Shown: piece after piece, positions 3,476 through 41,930 of the stretch
Numbering within the stretch: the first letter of the stretch is position 1
Layout of the letters: every line of letters begins with the position of its first letter
DNA from: a virus
Taxonomy: Duplodnaviria; Caudoviricetes
IMG/VR virus record: IMGVR_UViG_3300031965_000068
Location: 1-41,930 of that record
Reading direction: 5' to 3' (one strand)
Length of the DNA: 41,930 bases
Made by a program: the position numbers and the translations under genes
Notes under the pieces: model-generated
The model's database searches: none
Told to the model about the DNA's origin: nothing
The model's input: only the letters and a program-made list of their open reading frames with translations

Positions 3476-3687
3476 GCATCCTGGTCATCCGCTGGTCATC
3501 CAGCAACAGCGAGCCGTGGGTCGTGGAGGACGTCAATGGCGATCAGCGGTCAGCCATAGAAGAACTCGCCGTCCAGTACGACCCGCACGCTCAGATCATC
3601 GACGACCACCCATTCTCTCCAGCCGACGCAATCGCGGCGCTGGAGGGACTCATGGAAGGAAGCACGCATGACACAGCTACCGATTGA
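3472..3687 (+). CDS. hypothetical protein
   Basis: ATGA overlap; SD AAGGA. Confidence 0.6.
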   Translation: MSILVIRWSSSNSEPWVVEDVNGDQRSAIEELAVQYDPHAQIIDDHPFSPADAIAALEGLMEGSTHDTATD

Positions 3688-4873
3688 GAAGGTCCAACCG
3701 GGGAACAACATTCGACATGCCCTGGGAGATCTCGGTCCCCTGGTCAAGTCGATCGAGGCGGTGGGCATCCTTGAGCCCTTGCTGGTGGTAGGGAACACCT
3801 CGGACGGCTGGACGGTGGTTGCCGGGCATCGGCGGCTGGCGGCGGCGAAGAAGGCCGGACTGACTGAGGTCCCGGCGTCGGTGGTGAACTTCACCGAGGC
3901 GGAGATCGCTGAGGCCATGCTGATCGAGAACCTCCAGCGGGAGGACCTCTCCCCGATCGAGGAAGCCGAGGGGCTGTTCCGGCTGGAGGAACTCGGGATC
4001 GCCCGGAAGGAGATCAGCCAGCGAACGGGGATCCCGCCCAAGCGGATCAAAGATCGAGTGCATCTGCTCGACCTCCCGAAGCCAGCGCAGAACCTCGTCC
4101 ACCAGGGCAAGCTGCCGATTGATGCCGGGCTACTCCTGGCCAACGAGCCGCCCGACGTCGTCCTCGCCATGATCGAGGAAGAGATCTCCGCTCGGGACAT
4201 CAAGTGGAGGCTGGAGCAGGTGCGACAGGAGCGCAAGAACGCCGACGCTATGGAGACCCTGGCCCCTCGGATCGAGAAGCTCCGTGAGGCCGGGGTGCCC
4301 GTGGTCGACAGACCCAAGTCATGGGAGCAGCCGGCCGGAACGGGAGGATGGGTTGAGATCGGCCAGGGCTGGTCGAAGCTCGACCTCCCGGTGCGGGAGC
4401 ACGCCAAAGAGCCATGCGCCGCCTACTGGCTGGACCCCGGCTCGGCTCATTCCCCGGCTCGGCTGATCCCCGCCTGTCAGAAGAAGAAGCGCCACTCCTT
4501 CACCGGAGACTCGGAGCTCAAGATCCCCGACGCCGAGAAGGACCACGCCGAGACCCAGGCGAAGAAGGCCCGCGCGGCAAAGGAACGAGCCAAGGCCCAG
4601 GAGCGAGAGGCCGTCTACTCGACGGTCGAGAACCTGCCTGCCGAGACGATCCAGTGGATGGTGCTCGGGTTCGCCGGGTACTCCGACCTGGCGGAAGCTG
4701 CGAAGCGGCTGGACCTGGAGACCGCCGATGCTCTGCTCGAGTACGCCGGGCAATCGAAGGCCAACCTGCGGCGGGCCGTGGTGGCGGTGGCCCTCGCTAC
4801 CGATCCTCTCGGATCAGATGGATGGGGCCACCGGGCCGCGGCAGTTAAGGCCCTTCGTGAGGCGATCCAGTGA
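3668..4873 (+). CDS. ParB/Spo0J-family protein with C-terminal extension
   Basis: GILEPLLV, VVAGHRRLAA, ENLQREDLSPIEEA, then HTH. Confidence 0.9.
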   Translation: MTQLPIEKVQPGNNIRHALGDLGPLVKSIEAVGILEPLLVVGNTSDGWTVVAGHRRLAAAKKAGLTEVPASVVNFTEAEIAEAMLIENLQREDLSPIEEAEGLFRLEELGIARKEISQRTGIPPKRIKDRVHLLDLPKPAQNLVHQGKLPIDAGLLLANEPPDVVLAMIEEEISARDIKWRLEQVRQERKNADAMETLAPRIEKLREAGVPVVDRPKSWEQPAGTGGWVEIGQGWSKLDLPVREHAKEPCAAYWLDPGSAHSPARLIPACQKKKRHSFTGDSELKIPDAEKDHAETQAKKARAAKERAKAQEREAVYSTVENLPAETIQWMVLGFAGYSDLAEAAKRLDLETADALLEYAGQSKANLRRAVVAVALATDPLGSDGWGHRAAAVKALREAIQ

Positions 4874-6620: not shown

Positions 6621-7451
6621 ATGTTCCCTCTCGACCTGATCGACGCCAACCCGAACCAGCCCCGCAAGCACTTCGACACCGAGGGGTTGCGGGAGTTGGC
6701 CGCTTCCATCGCCAAGCTCGGGATCCTCCAACCGATCGTCGTCCGGCCGGTGGGCGATCGCTTCACGATCGTCGCTGGGGAGCGCCGGTGGCGTGCGGCT
6801 CAGATGGCCGGACTCACCGAGATCCCGGTGGTCGAGATCTCCCCCGACATGGCCGAGGGCGACCAGTTCGTCCGCTCGGTGGCCGAGAACGTCAATCGCC
6901 GGGACATGACGGTGACGGAGGAAGCCCAGGCGTTCCAACGTCTGGTCGACTCGGGCATGACGATCGAGGAAGTGGCCGAGGTGCTGGGGAAGCGGCCCCA
7001 GGACATTCGGTGGCGTCTCGATCTCCTGGCCCTGGACCCGAAGCTCGAGGAACTGGCGAACCGATCCCCCGACCTGGCCTGGTTCGTTGCGAAGTTGGGG
7101 ATCGAAGATCAATGGCGAGTGTGGAGGGAGATCAACAACGGCATGGGAACCCAAGACGCAGTTGCATTCTGCGAGGCGCTGGCTGCGCCCCAGGACGAGA
7201 TGTTCGCCGAGTTCACCCTGACGGCCGAGGAAGTCAAGATCCGGGACCAGGTGGCCTCGGTCTGCGACCGGCTGGACAAGGCGATCGGAGCGATCCACGA
7301 TCTGATGGACGGCGACGACGGCCGGGTCGCTCAGATCCTGGCTGACCGGGCCTCGATCCTCACCGACCGCCTGGAGCTCGCGGCTAAGTCGGTCCGCACC
7401 GAGGCCAAGGCGGCTCGGCGAATCCTCGGGATCGTGCGGGCACGATCATGA
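6621..7451 (+). CDS. ParB/Spo0J-family protein
   Basis: NPNQPRKHF, GILQPIVV, IVAGERRWRAA, ENVNRRDM. Confidence 0.92.
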   Translation: MFPLDLIDANPNQPRKHFDTEGLRELAASIAKLGILQPIVVRPVGDRFTIVAGERRWRAAQMAGLTEIPVVEISPDMAEGDQFVRSVAENVNRRDMTVTEEAQAFQRLVDSGMTIEEVAEVLGKRPQDIRWRLDLLALDPKLEELANRSPDLAWFVAKLGIEDQWRVWREINNGMGTQDAVAFCEALAAPQDEMFAEFTLTAEEVKIRDQVASVCDRLDKAIGAIHDLMDGDDGRVAQILADRASILTDRLELAAKSVRTEAKAARRILGIVRARS

Positions 7452-7597
7452 AGGAGTTCTACCGAGACTCCTGGCACACGCATATCACGCCTACACAGAT
7501 CCTGGTCTGCCCCGGATCGAAGTGTCATGCCTCTGAGTGCCCGGGAGTGGAGAGGCTGGTCAATACCGGGGACCCGACGCCTCGACTGCTACCATGA
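7448..7597 (+). CDS. possible small protein, 49 aa
   Basis: ATGA overlap; overlaps downstream promoter. Confidence 0.35.
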   Translation: MKEFYRDSWHTHITPTQILVCPGSKCHASECPGVERLVNTGDPTPRLLP

Positions 7598-7625
7598 CGA
7601 CAGTAGGGACCACGATCGAAGGAGC
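7587..7625 (+). promoter_or_regulatory. partial cassette copy: extended -10, GTAGGG and SD
   Basis: TGC-TACCAT-7nt-GTAGGG...GAAGGAG; no TTGACG. Confidence 0.55.
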
Positions 7626-7632
7626 CCCCGCT

Positions 7633-8283
7633 GTGCAATTGTTCACCGCCCGATACACCGCCAAACGCCTGATCGCCCAGGCCGACGCTGTGCCCGTCGC
7701 CACGACGGTTGGTCAATCGTCATCCACCTTCCACCGTCCAGCCTTCCACAGCCCGTCACTGGCCCCCTACGGCGTGTTCGGCATCACTCATTACTCCACT
7801 TTCCGGGAACGGTATCGCGAGCGTCTCGGGCGACTAGGGCTGGATCACATCGCCACCGAGCTCGAGACCATCGCCACCCTGACCGGCTGCCCTCGGCTCG
7901 CCCTGCTCTGCTTCGACGACTTGACCAAGCCCGACAACTGGTGTCATCGCCGCATGTTCGCCGAATGGTGGGAAGAACAGACCGGGATGGAGGTGCCGGA
8001 GCTGGGTCGCATGGCCGAAGCCCAGCCCGAGCTGTGGGATGCGATGGCCGACCTCCCGTCGGCGACGGTTGTCCGGAAGTCGCATCGACTGATCGAAGAG
8101 GGCCGGGTGAAGCTGCTCAAGAACGGTCGGCTGGTTCGGGTGGACGGTGACTCAGCCAGCTACGCGATCTCGATCACGAACGAGGTGGCCGGACCCTGCA
8201 TCTGTCGGTCGGTTCATCCCTGGTGCTCGCACCGCCTCGCTGCTCAGGCCGTGGTCAACCCGGACCACCTGCCCTCCACCTGA
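7633..8283 (+). CDS. DUF488-like protein fused to SWIM Zn finger
   Basis: GTG after GAAGGAG; LLCFD...WCHRR motif; C-terminal CIC...CSH. Confidence 0.7.
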   Translation: MQLFTARYTAKRLIAQADAVPVATTVGQSSSTFHRPAFHSPSLAPYGVFGITHYSTFRERYRERLGRLGLDHIATELETIATLTGCPRLALLCFDDLTKPDNWCHRRMFAEWWEEQTGMEVPELGRMAEAQPELWDAMADLPSATVVRKSHRLIEEGRVKLLKNGRLVRVDGDSASYAISITNEVAGPCICRSVHPWCSHRLAAQAVVNPDHLPST

Positions 8284-8289
8284 TACAGT
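8281..8289 (+). promoter_or_regulatory. extended -10 promoter for tRNA/modification operon
   Basis: TGA-TACAGT 11 nt upstream of the tRNA. Confidence 0.45.
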
Positions 8290-8300
8290 CCCGCGACAGC

Positions 8301-8371
8301 GCGTGGGTAGTTCAGTGGTAGAACGCCTCGATTCCGTCGGGGAGGCCTGGGTTCGATCCCCGGCCCGCGCT
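8301..8371 (+). tRNA. tRNA-Gly(TCC), atypical anticodon loop, no encoded CCA
   Basis: Cloverleaf: GCGTGGG/CCCGCGC, GTTC/GAAC, CCTCG-ATTCCGT-CGGGG, AGGC, CTGGG-TTCGATC-CCCGG, discriminator T. Confidence 0.88.
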
Positions 8372-8373
8372 CG

Positions 8374-9711
8374 ATGTTCCGTGGCTCGATACCGCCGGCG
8401 ATGCAATCGCTGGTCGTCAAGACAATCGACGGGTGGGACGTAGACGAGATCTACGTCGGCGCGTCCGGCAACTTCACGATCGAGCGACTACTCGCCCCTC
8501 GAGGGCGACGCCTGTGGTCGAACGATGTGCAGATCTACTCCTGTGCTATCGGATGGCGGTTGGCCGGCCAGGACTTCCGCCTCGAGGTCCGCCCGGACTT
8601 TCAAGACGAGTGGGGCTGGCTAGCCGACTCGATGACGACGCCCACCGGGAAGCTGGCGACGATCATGCTCGCCTCGACCATGATGCAGGGAGCCGGGAGC
8701 GGCAACGCCTACTACTCCCGCATCCGAAGGGCCTACCGGGCCCAGTGGCCCCGGCTGTTCGCCGAGACGTGTCAGACCATCGACTCGGTCGGGGTGGAGC
8801 TCGCCGGGTTCCATGCCGGGGATTGCGTCGACTGGCTGACAGAGATCCCGGCAGATCAGGGGTTCGCAGTCTTTCCTCCGTTCTTCGCCGGCGACTACGA
8901 GGCCATGTTCCGAGGATTGGGCAAGGTGTTCGACTGGGACGAGCCGGAGTATCCGGAGTTCGACCACGAGCGGGCCGAGCTGATGATCGAGCGGATGCGA
9001 GGGATAAAGCGGTGGCTGTACGGGTCCAACGTGCGCTGGCCCCAACTGGAGGACCACCTGACCGGGATCGTGCAGACCACGAACCGCGGGGTGCCGATCT
9101 ATTGCTACGCCGACGACGGGCGACCTCGGGGAGTCGTCAGGCCCGCTCAGCACATCGACGCACTCCTGATCCCACACCTCGGCCCGGACGACGAGTTGGG
9201 CGAGGAACTCAACATCATCCCGCTTACCGACGGCCAATTCTCGCTTCTGCGGTCCCGGTACATGAACCGGCACATTCGCCCGGGCCAGGCGTCGGCGGCG
9301 TACGGGGTCCACGTCGACGGGATCCTGGTCGGCGCCTACGCGATCACCACGGCTCCAACCCTCGCCCATTACGAGCGGCACATGCCGACGCCCACGGTGT
9401 ATCTGCTCTCCGACTTCCCGGTCTCGGGCACCAGATACGACCGGCTCGCCAAACTGGTGCTCTACGCTGCGTTGTCGGAAGAGTCCAAGGCGCTGATCGA
9501 GTTGGTGGGGCGCAAGCGATTCAGATCCATGGCCACGACGGCCTTCACCGACAACCCGGTCTCGATGAAGTACCGAGGGGTGTTTCGACTCCTGAGCCGC
9601 AAGGACAGCACCGACCCCCTCTACCAGTATCAGTTGCAGTACGGACGAGAGCTGGGCCAGTGGAACCTGACAGAAGGGATGGACGAGTGGCGATGGAAGC
9701 ACTCGAAGTAG
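8374..9711 (+). CDS. phage adenine-MTase-like + GNAT(Mom)-like fusion, putative DNA modification/anti-restriction enzyme
   Basis: MFxGS start; YVGASGNF (motif I-like); FPPF (variant motif IV); C-terminal YLLSDF...RLAKL...TTAF...SMKYRG; next to ParB and TerS. Confidence 0.7.
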   Translation: MFRGSIPPAMQSLVVKTIDGWDVDEIYVGASGNFTIERLLAPRGRRLWSNDVQIYSCAIGWRLAGQDFRLEVRPDFQDEWGWLADSMTTPTGKLATIMLASTMMQGAGSGNAYYSRIRRAYRAQWPRLFAETCQTIDSVGVELAGFHAGDCVDWLTEIPADQGFAVFPPFFAGDYEAMFRGLGKVFDWDEPEYPEFDHERAELMIERMRGIKRWLYGSNVRWPQLEDHLTGIVQTTNRGVPIYCYADDGRPRGVVRPAQHIDALLIPHLGPDDELGEELNIIPLTDGQFSLLRSRYMNRHIRPGQASAAYGVHVDGILVGAYAITTAPTLAHYERHMPTPTVYLLSDFPVSGTRYDRLAKLVLYAALSEESKALIELVGRKRFRSMATTAFTDNPVSMKYRGVFRLLSRKDSTDPLYQYQLQYGRELGQWNLTEGMDEWRWKHSK

Positions 9712-10571
9712 GCGTCGAGCTGTGTCGGCTCGAGGATCTTCTGCCTCTGGAGCAGAACGCCCGATTCATGCGGCATGAGACCTTCCAGCAGTTGGTCGCC
9801 AATCTCAAGCGAGACGGCCGACTCACCTCCACCCCGTTTGTATGGCTCAACGAGGAACGGGGCGGGCTCGAGATCCTGTCGGGCAACCACCGGGTGGCGG
9901 CGGCGATCGAGGCGGGGATCGAGGAAGCCTGGTGCCTGGTGTGCCGGGAATACCTGTCGGAGGATCGGCGGATCGCCATTCAGTTGTCGCACAACGCCAT
10001 CGAAGGCGAGGACGACGCCTCGGTGCTCAAGTCGCTCTACCAGGCGATCGGTGACGTCGACCTTCGGCTCTACGCCGGGCTGGACGACGAGACGCTGCAC
10101 TTGCTGGAATCGGTGCAGCCGGCCTCGCTGTCGGAGGCCCGCTTGGACTTCGCCACCGTCTCGCTGGTCTTTCTCCCCGACGAGCTGGAAGAGGCGCAGA
10201 GGGTGTGGGGGACGGTCCGTTCGCTGATCGGCAACGTGGACGACGCATGGCTGGCGAGGTGGTCCGAGTACGACGACTGGCTGGACACGATCGAGACGGC
10301 CGGCTCTAGCCACGGGATCTCCAACACGGCAACGGCGGTGGCGATCGTCTTGGAGCTGGTACGCCGGAACCTGCCTCAACTCTCCGAGGGGTTCATGTCC
10401 GACCAGGCCCAGCAGCGGAATCCGTATGTTCCGATCGCGGCGGTGCTGGGAACGGACAAGATCCCCGCCCAGGTCGCCAAGCGCCTTCATGCTGCGGTCG
10501 AGCGTGCGATCCAGCAGGGGTCGGTCCCTGCGGACGAACGCTGGAAGATCCTCGACGGGCTCGATGGCTGA
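9693..10571 (+). CDS. ParB/Srx-like protein associated with the modification locus
   Basis: EQNARFM...ILSGNHRVAAA...QLSHNAIEG. Confidence 0.8.
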   Translation: MEALEVGVELCRLEDLLPLEQNARFMRHETFQQLVANLKRDGRLTSTPFVWLNEERGGLEILSGNHRVAAAIEAGIEEAWCLVCREYLSEDRRIAIQLSHNAIEGEDDASVLKSLYQAIGDVDLRLYAGLDDETLHLLESVQPASLSEARLDFATVSLVFLPDELEEAQRVWGTVRSLIGNVDDAWLARWSEYDDWLDTIETAGSSHGISNTATAVAIVLELVRRNLPQLSEGFMSDQAQQRNPYVPIAAVLGTDKIPAQVAKRLHAAVERAIQQGSVPADERWKILDGLDG

Positions 10572-11076
10572 CGCATGGGAGCAACGAGCTTCCGAATCGG
10601 GAGAGGCCTACGCCGCCTTCCTGGCCTACCGAGACCAGGGGCTCGGCAAGCGGTCCATCCGCGACCTCTCCCGACAACTCGGGAAGAGCCCGTCGCTGGT
10701 CGCACGCTGGTCATCGGACAACGGCTGGATGGAACGGGCGGCGTCATGGGACGCCCACCTGCAACGGGTCGTCCAAGCCGAGTTCGAGGAAGAGCTACGA
10801 GCGGCCGTCAAACGCCAGGCGCAGATGGCCGGCGTATTTCTGAACAAAGTGGTGCAGCGGCTGCAACAACTCGACCCGGCCGATCTCACGCCCTCTCAAA
10901 TGATCCAGTGGTTCGACGTCGCAGCCCGGGTGGAGAGGACCGCCTTCGGTCAGCCAGACATGGTGATAGAGGGGCGAATGGGCAACACCGAGCATTCCCC
11001 GATGGTGGATCCGGGCAGAGTCATCGAGATCCGGAAGTGGCTGGAGTTGACCGATGGAGACGCTGAGGAAGAGTGA
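10564..11076 (+). CDS. terS: terminase small subunit
   Basis: WEQ...ES..AY.AF..YRD.G..RS..HTH..RWS...W..RA..WD; directly upstream of TerL. Confidence 0.75.
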   Translation: MADAWEQRASESGEAYAAFLAYRDQGLGKRSIRDLSRQLGKSPSLVARWSSDNGWMERAASWDAHLQRVVQAEFEEELRAAVKRQAQMAGVFLNKVVQRLQQLDPADLTPSQMIQWFDVAARVERTAFGQPDMVIEGRMGNTEHSPMVDPGRVIEIRKWLELTDGDAEEE

Positions 11077-11824
11077 CCGGGCGGCGGTTCGCGCCCTTCT
11101 GATCTCCGAGCACCCGGCGGTGTACGCCGAAGAGAAGTTCGGATACATCAACGAGCCGTTCCACGAAGAGTGGTACGAGGCCGAGCTGGTCCATCCCCGA
11201 CTGTGCATCGTCGCCCCCCGGGAGTACGCCAAGAGCGAGGTGTTCTCGGTCAACTCGACATGCTGGTTCGGCGAGAGGTGGCCGGGCTCGCATCAGTGGA
11301 TCTTCGAGGACTCCCTGGAGCAGGGGAAGCTCATGCTTGAGCGGATCATCTCCGCCATGACCCAGGCCAACCCCGCCATGACCGATCGAATGTGGAAGGA
11401 AGAGAACACCGATGCCATCTTCTCCAACTTCTCCCGGGTCACTGTGGCGGGTAGGGGGCAACGGAAGCGAGGTGCTCGAGGCGACCGGATCGTGGGAGAC
11501 GACATTCTGGACGAGGAATCGACTCACACCCGGTATCAGCGAGCCAAGGTAGAGCGATGGTGGGACGGGACGGTGGCGAACATGGCCCACCCTGGCATGT
11601 ACCGGAGACTCGGCTGGGGCCACCTCAAGGGCGCCGGCGTGCCGATGCTGTGGTATCCGCCCACGACGATCCGTCTGGTCGGGACTCCCTTCCACCAGGC
11701 CGACGCTCTGATGCGGATGCGGAAGAACCGGCTCTACCACTTCCGGCGGTACGAGGCCGAGTTCGATGTAGCCGACCTCGTCCCCGGCACGATGGCCGTC
11801 GAGGTGCTCCCGCTGGTGGCGTGA
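11054..11824 (+). CDS. terL: terminase large subunit, ATPase domain (N-terminal half)
   Basis: Walker A-like APREYAKS; RG; Walker B IVGDD; motif III GTP. Confidence 0.85.
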   Translation: METLRKSDRAAVRALLISEHPAVYAEEKFGYINEPFHEEWYEAELVHPRLCIVAPREYAKSEVFSVNSTCWFGERWPGSHQWIFEDSLEQGKLMLERIISAMTQANPAMTDRMWKEENTDAIFSNFSRVTVAGRGQRKRGARGDRIVGDDILDEESTHTRYQRAKVERWWDGTVANMAHPGMYRRLGWGHLKGAGVPMLWYPPTTIRLVGTPFHQADALMRMRKNRLYHFRRYEAEFDVADLVPGTMAVEVLPLVA

Positions 11825-13958: not shown

Positions 13959-14198
13959 GTGGTAGAGGACGAAGGCGCACAAGAGGGCTTGCCCGGAGTG
14001 CCGCCGCCGAAGGATCTCGTCGAGGTCTCGTTCCTCGGTGCCAAGCAACTGGTCCAGTTCGCCGGCTACCGACTGGGTGACACCGTGAAGGTGGAGCTCG
14101 TCGGGCAGTTGGTGGAGGATGGGACCAGGCGCACCACCGAGAAGGGCAAGACGAAGTTCGCCAAGATTCAGGTGGACGCCGTTGAGATCATCGGCTGA
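13959..14198 (+). CDS. hypothetical protein
   Basis: SD AAGGAGG before GTG 13959; extended -10 TGCTACCGT at 13916. Confidence 0.65.
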   Translation: MVEDEGAQEGLPGVPPPKDLVEVSFLGAKQLVQFAGYRLGDTVKVELVGQLVEDGTRRTTEKGKTKFAKIQVDAVEIIG

Positions 14199-14208
14199 GA
14201 CGGTCGAG

Positions 14209-15183
14209 GTGGGGGAGGCCGGGGAACTGGCCCCTCCCACCCTGGCCGAGATCATCGCCTCGACTCGGGCTACATCGTGGGGGCCACGGAGCGGCCTATG
14301 GCCCACCCGCCGGCCACCGATCGCCCGCCAGATCTGCACTGACTGGATCGGCCAGTTGGGACGGGACGGCATGTGGTCGCTCCCCTGTGAGGAATGCTCG
14401 GAGCAGTCGGGATGCCTGGTGGCGAAGCGGAAGGAGGTCGGCCCGCTGATGTTCGACCAGGAGTTCCTGACCACCCCCCGGTCCTCGGCTTCCTCGATCT
14501 TCCCCCGGGAGCGCACCAAGAAGATGCTGCGCGCCGATCTCTCGTTCCTCACCTCGTTCACCCCCGACCAGCCCGGGCGCTTCGCCATCGTCAACGGCTG
14601 GGACATCGCCTGGTCGGAGCGGACGGGCGGCGACTACCTGGCGAAGATCTCGACGTACTACGACCGGGCGACCCGGAAGCGGCGATTCCTCGACATCTCC
14701 CGCTGGCAGGCGCTCACATTCCGCCAGCAGGTCGAGCTGATCCGCCAGGAACACCGGCTTTACTCGGCCAACCTGTCCGTGATCGAGGAAGCCGGCGCTC
14801 AGTCGGTGTGGACCCAGGAGGTGAAGGCCACCGGTGCCGAGGTCCACGACGAGCGAACTGCGGAGCTGATGGCTGCGCTCTCCGAGGTGAAGGTGCTGGG
14901 CCATGAGGCCTCCGACAAGCGATCGCTGGCCAAGGGCGTCCCCTCGCTGCTACTCGATCTCGAGCGGGAGGCGTGGGAGCTTCCATTCCAGGAGGGCACC
15001 TATCACCACGAAGAGGCCGAGAACTTCCTGGTGGAGCTGGAGGCGTTCGGCTGGAACGATGACAAGCTGGAAGGGGTCGGGGAACACGACGACACGGTGA
15101 TGGCCTGGTGGCACAACTCATGGGGCCTCGAGCAGCACGTCGGCCAGCGGACCACGATGTCGGTTCCGGGAGGACAGATCTGA
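14209..15183 (+). CDS. terL: terminase large subunit, nuclease domain (C-terminal half); start uncertain
   Basis: LWP...F.QEF linker; GWDIA...D; IEE; HDDTVMA RNase H-like motifs. Confidence 0.82.
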   Translation: MGEAGELAPPTLAEIIASTRATSWGPRSGLWPTRRPPIARQICTDWIGQLGRDGMWSLPCEECSEQSGCLVAKRKEVGPLMFDQEFLTTPRSSASSIFPRERTKKMLRADLSFLTSFTPDQPGRFAIVNGWDIAWSERTGGDYLAKISTYYDRATRKRRFLDISRWQALTFRQQVELIRQEHRLYSANLSVIEEAGAQSVWTQEVKATGAEVHDERTAELMAALSEVKVLGHEASDKRSLAKGVPSLLLDLEREAWELPFQEGTYHHEEAENFLVELEAFGWNDDKLEGVGEHDDTVMAWWHNSWGLEQHVGQRTTMSVPGGQI

Positions 15184-41214: not shown

Positions 41215-41930
41215 ATGAGTCTGATCATGATGGAATCCTGCGACCTGCCGAGTGTGGCAGGCGCCAAATGGGATCTGATCACGACGACCAACTTCGCGCA
41301 GACCGTCGACTCCCGGACCTGTTGGACGATCGCGGACAGCCGGGATGAGGGGCTCCGCAAGAACTTCGCCGCCCAAGAGGATGACACGATCATCCTCGGG
41401 TTCCGTCACTACAAGACGGGGCTCTCCGCCACCAACAATGCCGGGTCGATCATGTCGTTCTGGGGTGACGGCGGGACAGTGCTGCATCTCACCGTCGAAA
41501 CACCCAACTCGGACGGGTCGATCGACGTGCGACGGGCCGGCACCACCATCCTCGGCACGTCGGCGGCGGGTGTCCTGTCGCTGATCGGAGCCTGGCAGTA
41601 CATCGAAGTGAAGGTGCTGATATCCGACACGGTCGGCACCGTCGACGTGGTGGTGGATGGTGTGAACGTGCTGTCTCTGACCAACCAGGACACCCGCAAC
41701 GGGGGGACAGACGCTCTCATCGATCAAGTACGGATCGGATCTCAGAACACCGCCAACAACGCGGCCACCGCCGTCCGCGACATTGTGATCATGAACGAGC
41801 AAGGGTCGTCACTCAACGACTTTCTCGGACCGGTCATTGTTGAGGCTCGTCTGGCGGACGGGGCGGGTGACAACACTGATTGGACTCCGAACACCGGGGC
41901 GAACTTCCAGGCGGTGGACGATCCGGGGGC
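41215..41930 (+). CDS. minor tail/virion protein, lectin-like beta sandwich (partial, runs off the window)
   Basis: ATG after GGAGG; open frame; W.YIEVK...G.V.V.VDG; DFLG. Confidence 0.65.
   Translation, partial: MSLIMMESCDLPSVAGAKWDLITTTNFAQTVDSRTCWTIADSRDEGLRKNFAAQEDDTIILGFRHYKTGLSATNNAGSIMSFWGDGGTVLHLTVETPNSDGSIDVRRAGTTILGTSAAGVLSLIGAWQYIEVKVLISDTVGTVDVVVDGVNVLSLTNQDTRNGGTDALIDQVRIGSQNTANNAATAVRDIVIMNEQGSSLNDFLGPVIVEARLADGAGDNTDWTPNTGANFQAVDDPG

Follow-up and report, generated by a model that had tools for sequence, protein, structure and literature searches.

Two described systems come close to the locus analyzed here. Mom of phage Mu moves glycine from Gly-tRNA-Gly to the N6 of adenine in double-stranded DNA (Silva et al. 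2026, PMC13219725), and staphylococci carry extra, non-proteogenic tRNA-Gly species (NP1 to NP3), which have a five-base loop and a weak T-stem and act as donors for GNAT-fold aminoacyl transferases of the FmhB/FemA/FemB type (PMC7826273, PMC3239215). We analyzed a soil-phage record of 41,930 bases and 66% G+C (IMG/VR record IMGVR_UViG_3300031965_000068; the whole stretch is called the window below), in which a tRNA-Gly(TCC) gene at 8301 to 8371 ends 2 nucleotides before the ATG of a gene encoding a Dam-like/GNAT fusion protein of 445 amino acids. We consider it fairly likely that this phage supplies a non-decoding Gly-tRNA that feeds Mom-like hypermodification of phage DNA. The modified position is probably adenine N6, and the modification would shield phage DNA from host restriction.

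The window tRNA was detected by ARAGORN and by Rfam RF00005 (54.8 bits; cut-off 29), and it scores 76.8 bits with a covariance model of the tRNAs linked to homologues of the fusion gene, a model partly built from the window tRNA. Recognition by glycyl-tRNA synthetase (GlyRS) depends on G1-C72, C2-G71, G3-C70, U73, C35, and C36. All of these were found in the parsed window tRNA, along with A32, U33, G37, and U38 in the anticodon loop. A first-pass annotation made from the sequence alone had described the complete cloverleaf, the identity elements, the odd loop, and the 2-nucleotide spacing to the ATG, and our results agree on each. CCA is not encoded; U73 is followed by CG and then by the ATG at 8374, and because U73 lies so close to the start codon, no Shine-Dalgarno sequence fits and cutting at the tRNA 3′ end would leave a near-leaderless mRNA. 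Several features had gone unnoted: the T-stem (C49-G65, U50-G64, G51-C63) is weak for EF-Tu by an additive model, while the D-loop GG, the TTC T-loop, U33, and G51-C63 are normal and U8 and A14 are retained. Set against a decoding loop (Y32, U33, A37, A38) and a tight T-stem (about -11 kcal/mol), the window tRNA departs at A32, G37, and U38 and in its calculated value of -9.7 kcal/mol. It is at most 70% identical to the sampled host tRNA-Gly genes, and the folding z-score of the tRNA alone was not significant.

The fusion protein is a full member of two uncharacterized Pfam families (PHROG 7858), PF22555 (DAM-like-phage1; residues 2 to 268, E value of 9e-78, 261.8 bits) and PF22559 (GNAT-phage-like; residues 277 to 443, E value of 1e-49, 168.6 bits), each with a curated cut-off of 27; the family descriptions that we saw do not mention a linked tRNA. 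Its start at M1 agrees with the MFxGSxP consensus of homologues. The homologue set comprised 563 proteins among 7,996 scored candidates, and conservation was counted in 120 phmmer homologues and in 72 cluster representatives at 70% protein identity. AlphaFold models were confident, with a mean predicted local distance difference test score of 88 for the whole protein and 95 for the C-domain. The N-domain adopts the class I Rossmann/Dam methyltransferase fold, and DNA adenine methylases gave the longest alignments (T4Dam, Z 12.2, root-mean-square deviation [rmsd] 4.6, 188 residues aligned; DpnM, Z 12.2). The fold includes the DNA-recognition insertion, with 188 to 210 residues aligned to T4Dam, DpnM, EcoDam, and Mcbe1. 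Like T4Dam, DpnM, and EcoDam, the domain has a Gly and two Asp residues at the positions expected to contact S-adenosylmethionine (SAM), and these residues (G32, D51, D150) are invariant in 72/72 cluster representatives. Unlike those enzymes, the family has [FY]PP[FT] as motif IV (FPPF at residues 167 to 170 here, as the first-pass annotation had read in an adenine-methyltransferase-like domain), and the second Gly of motif I is replaced by Phe or Leu in a by-eye mapping. Because [DNS]PP[YFW] occurs in 0/120 phmmer homologues and 0/72 cluster representatives while G32, D51, and D150 do not vary, we infer that adenine methylation has been lost and the cofactor pocket retained.

The C-domain, previously described as GNAT-like, has the GNAT fold; compared with 48,161 representative chains, it matched Mu Mom (8bv8_B) first among solved structures (Z 11.9, rmsd 3.1, 144 residues aligned), nearly level with other GNATs. 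The coenzyme A (CoA) pyrophosphate loop, R/QxxGxG/A, was found in 0/120 homologues, so that the fusion protein shares with Mom a GNAT fold lacking the CoA motif, as well as its position as a phage late gene. It differs in its invariant GNAT-domain residues (R293, D347, T388, S397, K399, Y400, and R401), in the fused Dam-like domain, in a ParB partner, and in the lack of sequence homology; the domain would thus work like Mom without being a Mom. PMC5512222 concerns other GNAT families.

The first-pass annotation had proposed looking for tRNA-Gly upstream of homologues. Three alignment-based scans confirmed 565, 363, and 500 stretches, and the best 80 from each, 240 loci in all, were analyzed together with three annotated phages; a single-sequence locus search had found nothing. 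The searches for loci were seeded with SGNFT, YLLSDF, and PVSMKYRG, so the conservation of these motifs in the loci is partly by construction, but they are conserved in the unseeded phmmer set too. At default settings, ARAGORN called a tRNA within 400 nucleotides upstream on the same strand in 98/220 loci with at least 200 nucleotides of upstream sequence (window included, not dereplicated, 24 incomplete loci left out). These upstream calls were 100 Gly (TCC 46, CCC 38, ACC 15, GCC 1), 4 unassigned, and none of another isotype; elsewhere in the same loci there were 15 Gly calls and 6 others. ARAGORN with -ps80 returned mostly noise, and the covariance model, built from 58 linked tRNAs, was therefore used instead. 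Among 208 full-length loci it placed a tRNA within 500 nucleotides in 131 and further off in 16 (a few of them ordinary tRNAs), and it found none in 61. By 70%-identity cluster, a tRNA was near in 43 and further off in 8, so that tRNA-Gly is strongly enriched, occurring in 51 of the 72 clusters. In the clade of the window itself, 22/23 rows of a quick tree carry the tRNA, and the tRNA label is spread over the tree. tRNA and protein are co-inherited (Mantel rho 0.45), and the tRNA-linked family occurs with Actinomycetota, Bacillota, Chloroflexota, and others.

Placement varied. The tRNA lies upstream on the same strand in 40/51 clusters, on the opposite strand in 3, downstream in 4, and more than 500 nucleotides upstream in 4; tandem copies occur, and CCA is encoded in 31/51. 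U73 lies 1 to 3 nucleotides from the start codon in the window and at six other loci (L054, L215, L196, L197, L199, and L200). Copies on the opposite strand, downstream of the gene, or in tandem speak for a role mainly in trans. Cultured phages carry the arrangement as well: mycobacteriophage Argie has an annotated tRNA-Gly, the homologue, and ParB consecutively, and in Gordonia phages Jollymon and Clawz, tRNA-Gly-like genes that had escaped annotation lie about 110 nucleotides upstream of the homologue. The Gordonia phage copies (L002:3821-3891 and L003:3823-3893) encode CCA and were missed by ARAGORN. A lone tRNA-Gly(TCC) in cluster W mycobacteriophages is described, with no function assigned, in the paper on Taptic (PMC5356062). 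Downstream open reading frames (ORFs) matched ParB_N in 45/62 cases (E values up to 0.05, mostly below the cut-off), and 47 ParB-like downstream ORFs align with an invariant SGNHR; DUF488 was frequent upstream, not constant (27/65 tested). Two variants were seen among distant relatives. L300, L302, and L344 (3923-4074, 5149-7233) have tandem tRNA-Gly(ACC) genes before a 695-amino-acid amidoligase fusion bearing a distant form of the module, and reduced tRNA-Gly-like RNAs of 66 to 67 nucleotides with shrunken D-arms precede distant family members in L134 (4909-4974), L209, and L217.

Three sets of tRNA-Gly were compared: 92 unique linked copies, 32 from hosts, and 251 others from viruses. The host tRNAs came from 30-locus samples, mostly of Actinomycetota, after exclusion of two genomes that are unpublished and two copies in prophages. 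The acceptor ends, C35/C36, and the T-loop are preset by the control search patterns, which limits comparison with the controls to the remaining positions. There the linked tRNAs diverged: A37 was present in 35/92 linked copies (32/32 host, 248/251 other viral), A38 in 11/92 (32/32, 239/251), U33 in 64/92 (32/32, 247/251), the D-loop GG in 53/92 (32/32, 247/251), and G51-C63 in 6/92 (31/32, 174/251), with A51-U63 in 36/92 linked copies. Conversely, a C-G, G-C, or A-U pair at positions 32 and 38 was present in 78/92 linked copies, 0/32 host tRNAs, and 4/251 other viral tRNAs. In 58 diverse copies, 32-38 was paired in every case (C-G 42, U-A 7, G-C 5, A-U 3, U-G 1), with 15 compensatory changes. 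Within single protein clusters, N34 may be U, C, or A (including the ACC anticodon) and N37 any base. The acceptor pairs G1-C72, C2-G71, and G3-C70 and U73 were nonetheless kept in 92/92 linked copies where the pattern did not force them; two further linked copies, L046 and L061, have A3-U70. EF-Tu affinities, calculated by an additive T-stem model with values from Table 2 of PMC3239215, averaged -9.68 kcal/mol for the linked tRNAs (86/92 scorable), compared with -11.11 for host tRNAs (32/32) and -10.71 and -10.49 for other viral tRNAs. No host control was as weak as the window tRNA; 32/32 were canonical.

U33 and a purine at 37 are near-universal in decoding tRNAs (PMC5041475). Since acceptor identity is kept in 92/92 while the loop, N34/N37, and T-stem deviate, the linked class, judged from its sequences, has kept the features needed for charging while those needed for decoding have relaxed. 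The staphylococcal donors are similar in having a six-pair anticodon stem with a five-base loop, often A51-U63, altered T- or D-loops, and calculated T-stem values of about -9.5 to -9.7 kcal/mol (-9.5 for a staphylococcal donor in PMC3239215). They differ in being chromosomal, serving peptidoglycan synthesis, and being reported only from staphylococci (PMC7826273), whereas the class described here is phage-borne, spans several phyla, and leaves the first anticodon position free. The window tRNA itself has neither the NP pairs A49-U65, U50-A64, and A51-U63, nor the TGC/TGT T-loop, nor a staphylococcal lineage.

From the tRNA side, anticodon was a poor guide: the Dam-GNAT family lay within 4 kb of viral tRNA-Gly(ACC) in 4/59 cases, GCC in 0/79, and TCC in 1/78, so that ACC alone is no marker. 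Odd-loop ACC tRNAs away from the family lay beside true Mom genes and DruA-like genes. We also scanned viral contigs, blind to protein content, for tRNA-Gly with C32-G38, which gave 120 loci, 80 with flanks, 65 tRNA-like, and 54 unique tRNAs. Within 3.5 kb of these 54 were Mom in 12 cases, the Dam-GNAT family in 11, and phrog_11996 in 6; 160 control loci had 0, 1, and 1, respectively, plus one DruA-like gene. The enrichment of Mom has a Fisher P value of 2e-8, not corrected for relatedness; 4 of the 12 Mom-adjacent contigs had helped widen the Mom profile, and all 12 genes pass Pfam PF25680. Ten of the 12 Mom-adjacent tRNAs lack U33, and some of the Mom genes are fusions with additional domains, that of L815 with DNA polymerase A. 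The same odd tRNA type thus stands beside some true Mom genes.

Other neighbors of such tRNAs were recorded. Reduced tRNA-Gly-like RNAs of 66 to 67 nucleotides with shrunken D-arms lie just after Mom genes in L715 (4625-4691), L733, L737, L738, L743, and L741. Phage DruA-like genes (PF14236) in L321 (2760-3950, minus strand) and L340 (4038-5255, plus strand) directly follow a tRNA-Gly(ACC) with A32-U38, as in the window, and are candidates for further tRNA-dependent enzymes. The phrog_11996 protein (237 amino acids), which has no Pfam or Atlas family, follows odd tRNA-Gly genes in L281 (4164-4874), L298, L348, L564, L295, L758, and L765. In a lambdoid phage (L755:3501-5183), a C32-G38 tRNA-Gly(TCC) is flanked by the Q gene on one side and by type II heat-labile enterotoxin genes on the other, an unrelated system.

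The mechanism that we propose begins with a tRNA and a gene that are adjacent and co-inherited across phyla. After excision of the tRNA from the late transcript, the host would add CCA and host GlyRS would charge it. Its weak EF-Tu T-stem, as computed, and a loop unfit for decoding would leave the charged tRNA free. The GNAT domain would then transfer the glycyl group, as its fold, the missing CoA motif, and the Mom precedent suggest, while the Dam-like domain would bind DNA and flip the target base without methylating adenine, probably still binding SAM or S-adenosylhomocysteine. More speculatively, the ParB-like partner may load or move the enzyme on DNA, which would be hypermodified just before packaging, and the cutting of the tRNA 3′ end might couple donor supply to enzyme synthesis. 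In clusters lacking the tRNA, the enzyme would draw on host Gly-tRNA, as Mu Mom does. We hold a broader proposal tentatively, with slightly more doubt than belief: that widespread phage non-decoding tRNA-Gly species (locked 32-38, free 34 and 37, weak EF-Tu stem) are private cofactors for at least two unrelated GNAT DNA modifiers, perhaps also for DruA-like and phrog_11996 proteins; that the Dam-GNAT-ParB system installs an undescribed glycine-derived base, possibly extended through the still SAM-binding Dam domain; and that the tRNA signature finds new enzymes.

Several observations weigh against this reading of the module. Mu Mom accepts all host tRNA-Gly isoacceptors (PMC13219725), and Mu relies on host tRNA and encodes none at its Mom locus; only 8 or 9 of 81 loci with close relatives of Mu Mom match the tRNA model, several very degenerately, and 25/54 C32-G38 tRNAs have none of the tested neighbors. 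The structural link to Mom is slim, its Z lead over three generic acetyl-CoA GNATs being less than 1, and Foldseek places Mom 25th and 35th. The fusion protein has no PF25680 match, a profile-profile comparison with Mom by hhalign gave a probability of 6.2%, a sequence search of the PDB gave no real match, and Mom's essential R111, S124, D149, and R151 appear not to be kept in a by-eye mapping, with S in 40/72 and A in 32/72 cluster representatives at position 359. The tRNA controls are small and taxonomically uneven, A32-U38 is present in working tRNA-Ala and tRNA-Pro (PMC5041475), and the window tRNA, with its GG, TTC, U33, and G51-C63, is among the more normal copies, a mild example of its class. 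The co-occurrence counts are not phylogenetically independent, and with 843 tests taken into account, no residue column follows the presence of the tRNA. The tRNA is also not obligatory, being absent from 21/72 clusters, and 9/9 such loci stayed empty when rechecked with filters off. The reading proposed at first pass is supported by the GNAT fold and the co-occurrence; its DNA acceptor, product, and anti-restriction role are putative. The L079 cluster (18 loci, mostly Streptomyces; e.g., L126, L132, and L144) has enzyme and ParB with no detectable tRNA within 5 kb and is a natural control for host-tRNA use. In five Streptomycetaceae genomes of the tRNA-less clade, tRNA pattern matches occurred at about the control rate.

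The tRNA might instead donate glycine to an acceptor other than DNA adenine, such as another or an already modified base, a host defense factor, or a virion protein, or the Dam-like domain might still use SAM, to methylate the transferred glycyl group or to lengthen it. The invariant GNAT residues do differ from those of Mom, the acyl acceptors of most structural neighbors are proteins or small amines, the module is joined to an amidoligase in relatives, and the invariance of the SAM-contact residues suggests that the cofactor pocket is under selection. We nevertheless regard this as unlikely, as the fused Dam fold keeps its DNA-recognition insertion, the module keeps company with ParB and terminase genes, and the tRNA type occurs beside true Mom DNA modifiers. 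An ordinary translation tRNA, topping up the host pool or evading anticodon nucleases and placed here by a strong late operon, is improbable. The normal elements of the window copy (U8, A14, D-loop GG, U33, TTC, G51-C63) would suit it, and altered anticodon loops in phage tRNAs reportedly evade nucleases, but other viral tRNA-Gly genes keep the canonical loop, U33 is lost in 28/92 linked copies, and such a role would forbid the N34/N37 drift seen in close clusters and would not select only Gly. GGA, moreover, accounts for just 73/532 Gly codons in 14 window genes.

To a tRNA mimic acting in cis as a leader, controlling a toxic enzyme through autorepression or processing to a leaderless mRNA, we give little credence. 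It would fit the upstream same-strand position in most clusters and the seven loci with no space for a Shine-Dalgarno sequence, but not the copies that are inverted, downstream, distant, or tandem or that encode CCA; only where the tRNA abuts the gene may it act in cis as well. Least credible is a divergent N6-adenine methyltransferase whose tRNA is an integration-site remnant or a hitchhiker. UniRef and one GenBank annotation do label relatives "putative antirestriction adenine methyltransferase" or "methyltransferase." The methylase and integration-site readings were rejected on the loss of motif IV, on a complete, mid-operon tRNA with limited identity to host tRNA-Gly, on covariation that conserves its structure, and on its co-inheritance with the protein.

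The module sits at the head of the packaging genes, with the terminase small subunit next door (Table 1), in a record that also has portal, head, tape-measure, and terminase genes. The neighborhood of DUF488, ParB, and the terminase small subunit described at first pass was recovered by Pfam and PHROG, the DUF488 match being weak. The DUF488-like gene stops 17 nucleotides upstream of the tRNA, and the ParB-like gene begins before the fusion gene has ended. At 7300-8500, neither a sigma-70 promoter nor a terminator was matched. A contig of DNA run X1, a possible source of the window DNA, covers 7500-10600 with 0 differences; apart from this contig, four DNA runs contributed scattered short pieces, and no RNA data set containing the locus was listed among public runs.

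Table 1. Features of the tRNA-Gly/Dam-GNAT module in the window, and Mom genes found beside odd tRNA-Gly genes elsewhere
Feature	Position or loci	Strand	Evidence
DUF488-like gene, start uncertain	7537..8283	+	Weak: Pfam E 0.04; phrog_2450 E 3e-14
tRNA-Gly(UCC)-type RNA, predicted non-decoding glycyl donor	8301..8371	+	ARAGORN, Rfam RF00005
Dam-like/GNAT fusion enzyme, 445 aa	8374..9711	+	PF22555 + PF22559; PHROG 7858
Dam-like Rossmann domain (PF22555), motif IV FPPF	8377..9177	+	Pfam, structure comparison
GNAT domain (PF22559), without R/QxxGxG/A CoA motif	9202..9702	+	Pfam, structure comparison
ParB/Srx-like partner, 292 aa, invariant SGNHR	9693..10571	+	Pfam E 0.03; phrog_7405 E 1e-65
Terminase small subunit	10564..11076	+	phrog_6299 E 8e-17
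Mom genes beside C32-G38 tRNA-Gly	L746, L770, L772, L789, L797, L814, L815, L819, L328, L336, L338, L310		PF25680

Elsewhere in the window, the terminase large subunit is apparently in two genes, 11054-11824 and 14119-15183, which are separated by 2.3 kb of sequence containing other ORFs and match phrog_38 in different parts. Two more canonical ParB genes (ParB_N plus a helix-turn-helix) lie upstream of the module at 3668-4873 and 6621-7451, and no ParA was found among the window proteins scanned alongside them. Over positions 1-41930, CGCG and CTAG are depleted (observed/expected, 0.41 and 0.30), while GATC is not (1.08). ARAGORN also called a tRNA-Tyr at 41371-41445 on the minus strand; it is unmatched by Rfam, lies opposite a plus-strand reading frame, and is probably false, so that the tRNA-Gly is still the only tRNA in the window, as first reported.

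The Dam/GNAT/ParB phage module was probably described in 2013, in a comparative-genomics study by Iyer and coworkers. We found no paper tying a phage-encoded tRNA-Gly to the Dam-GNAT family or to Mom in a search covering mainly the open-access literature, and the main text and two of the three supplementary files of the Mom paper (PMC13219725) hold no such link for the terms tried. That paper does put in print the Gly-tRNA chemistry of Mom that the first-pass annotation had mentioned. Both the chemistry of Mom and the concept of a donor tRNA have precedents; their combination in phages is new to print as far as searched.

In the sources cited, the one established use of dedicated non-ribosomal tRNAs is the synthesis of the staphylococcal cell wall (PMC7826273), and the one tRNA-dependent DNA modification is that by Mom, with host tRNA (PMC13219725). 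The system described here would unite the two in phages. It would give a testable purpose to tRNA-Gly genes that stand alone in phage genomes, as does the only tRNA of cluster W mycobacteriophages (PMC5356062), and a putative donor substrate to two uncharacterized Pfam families with hundreds of members. The DNA modification to which it points is probably new and can be searched for immediately in cultured phages whose laboratory hosts are harmless.

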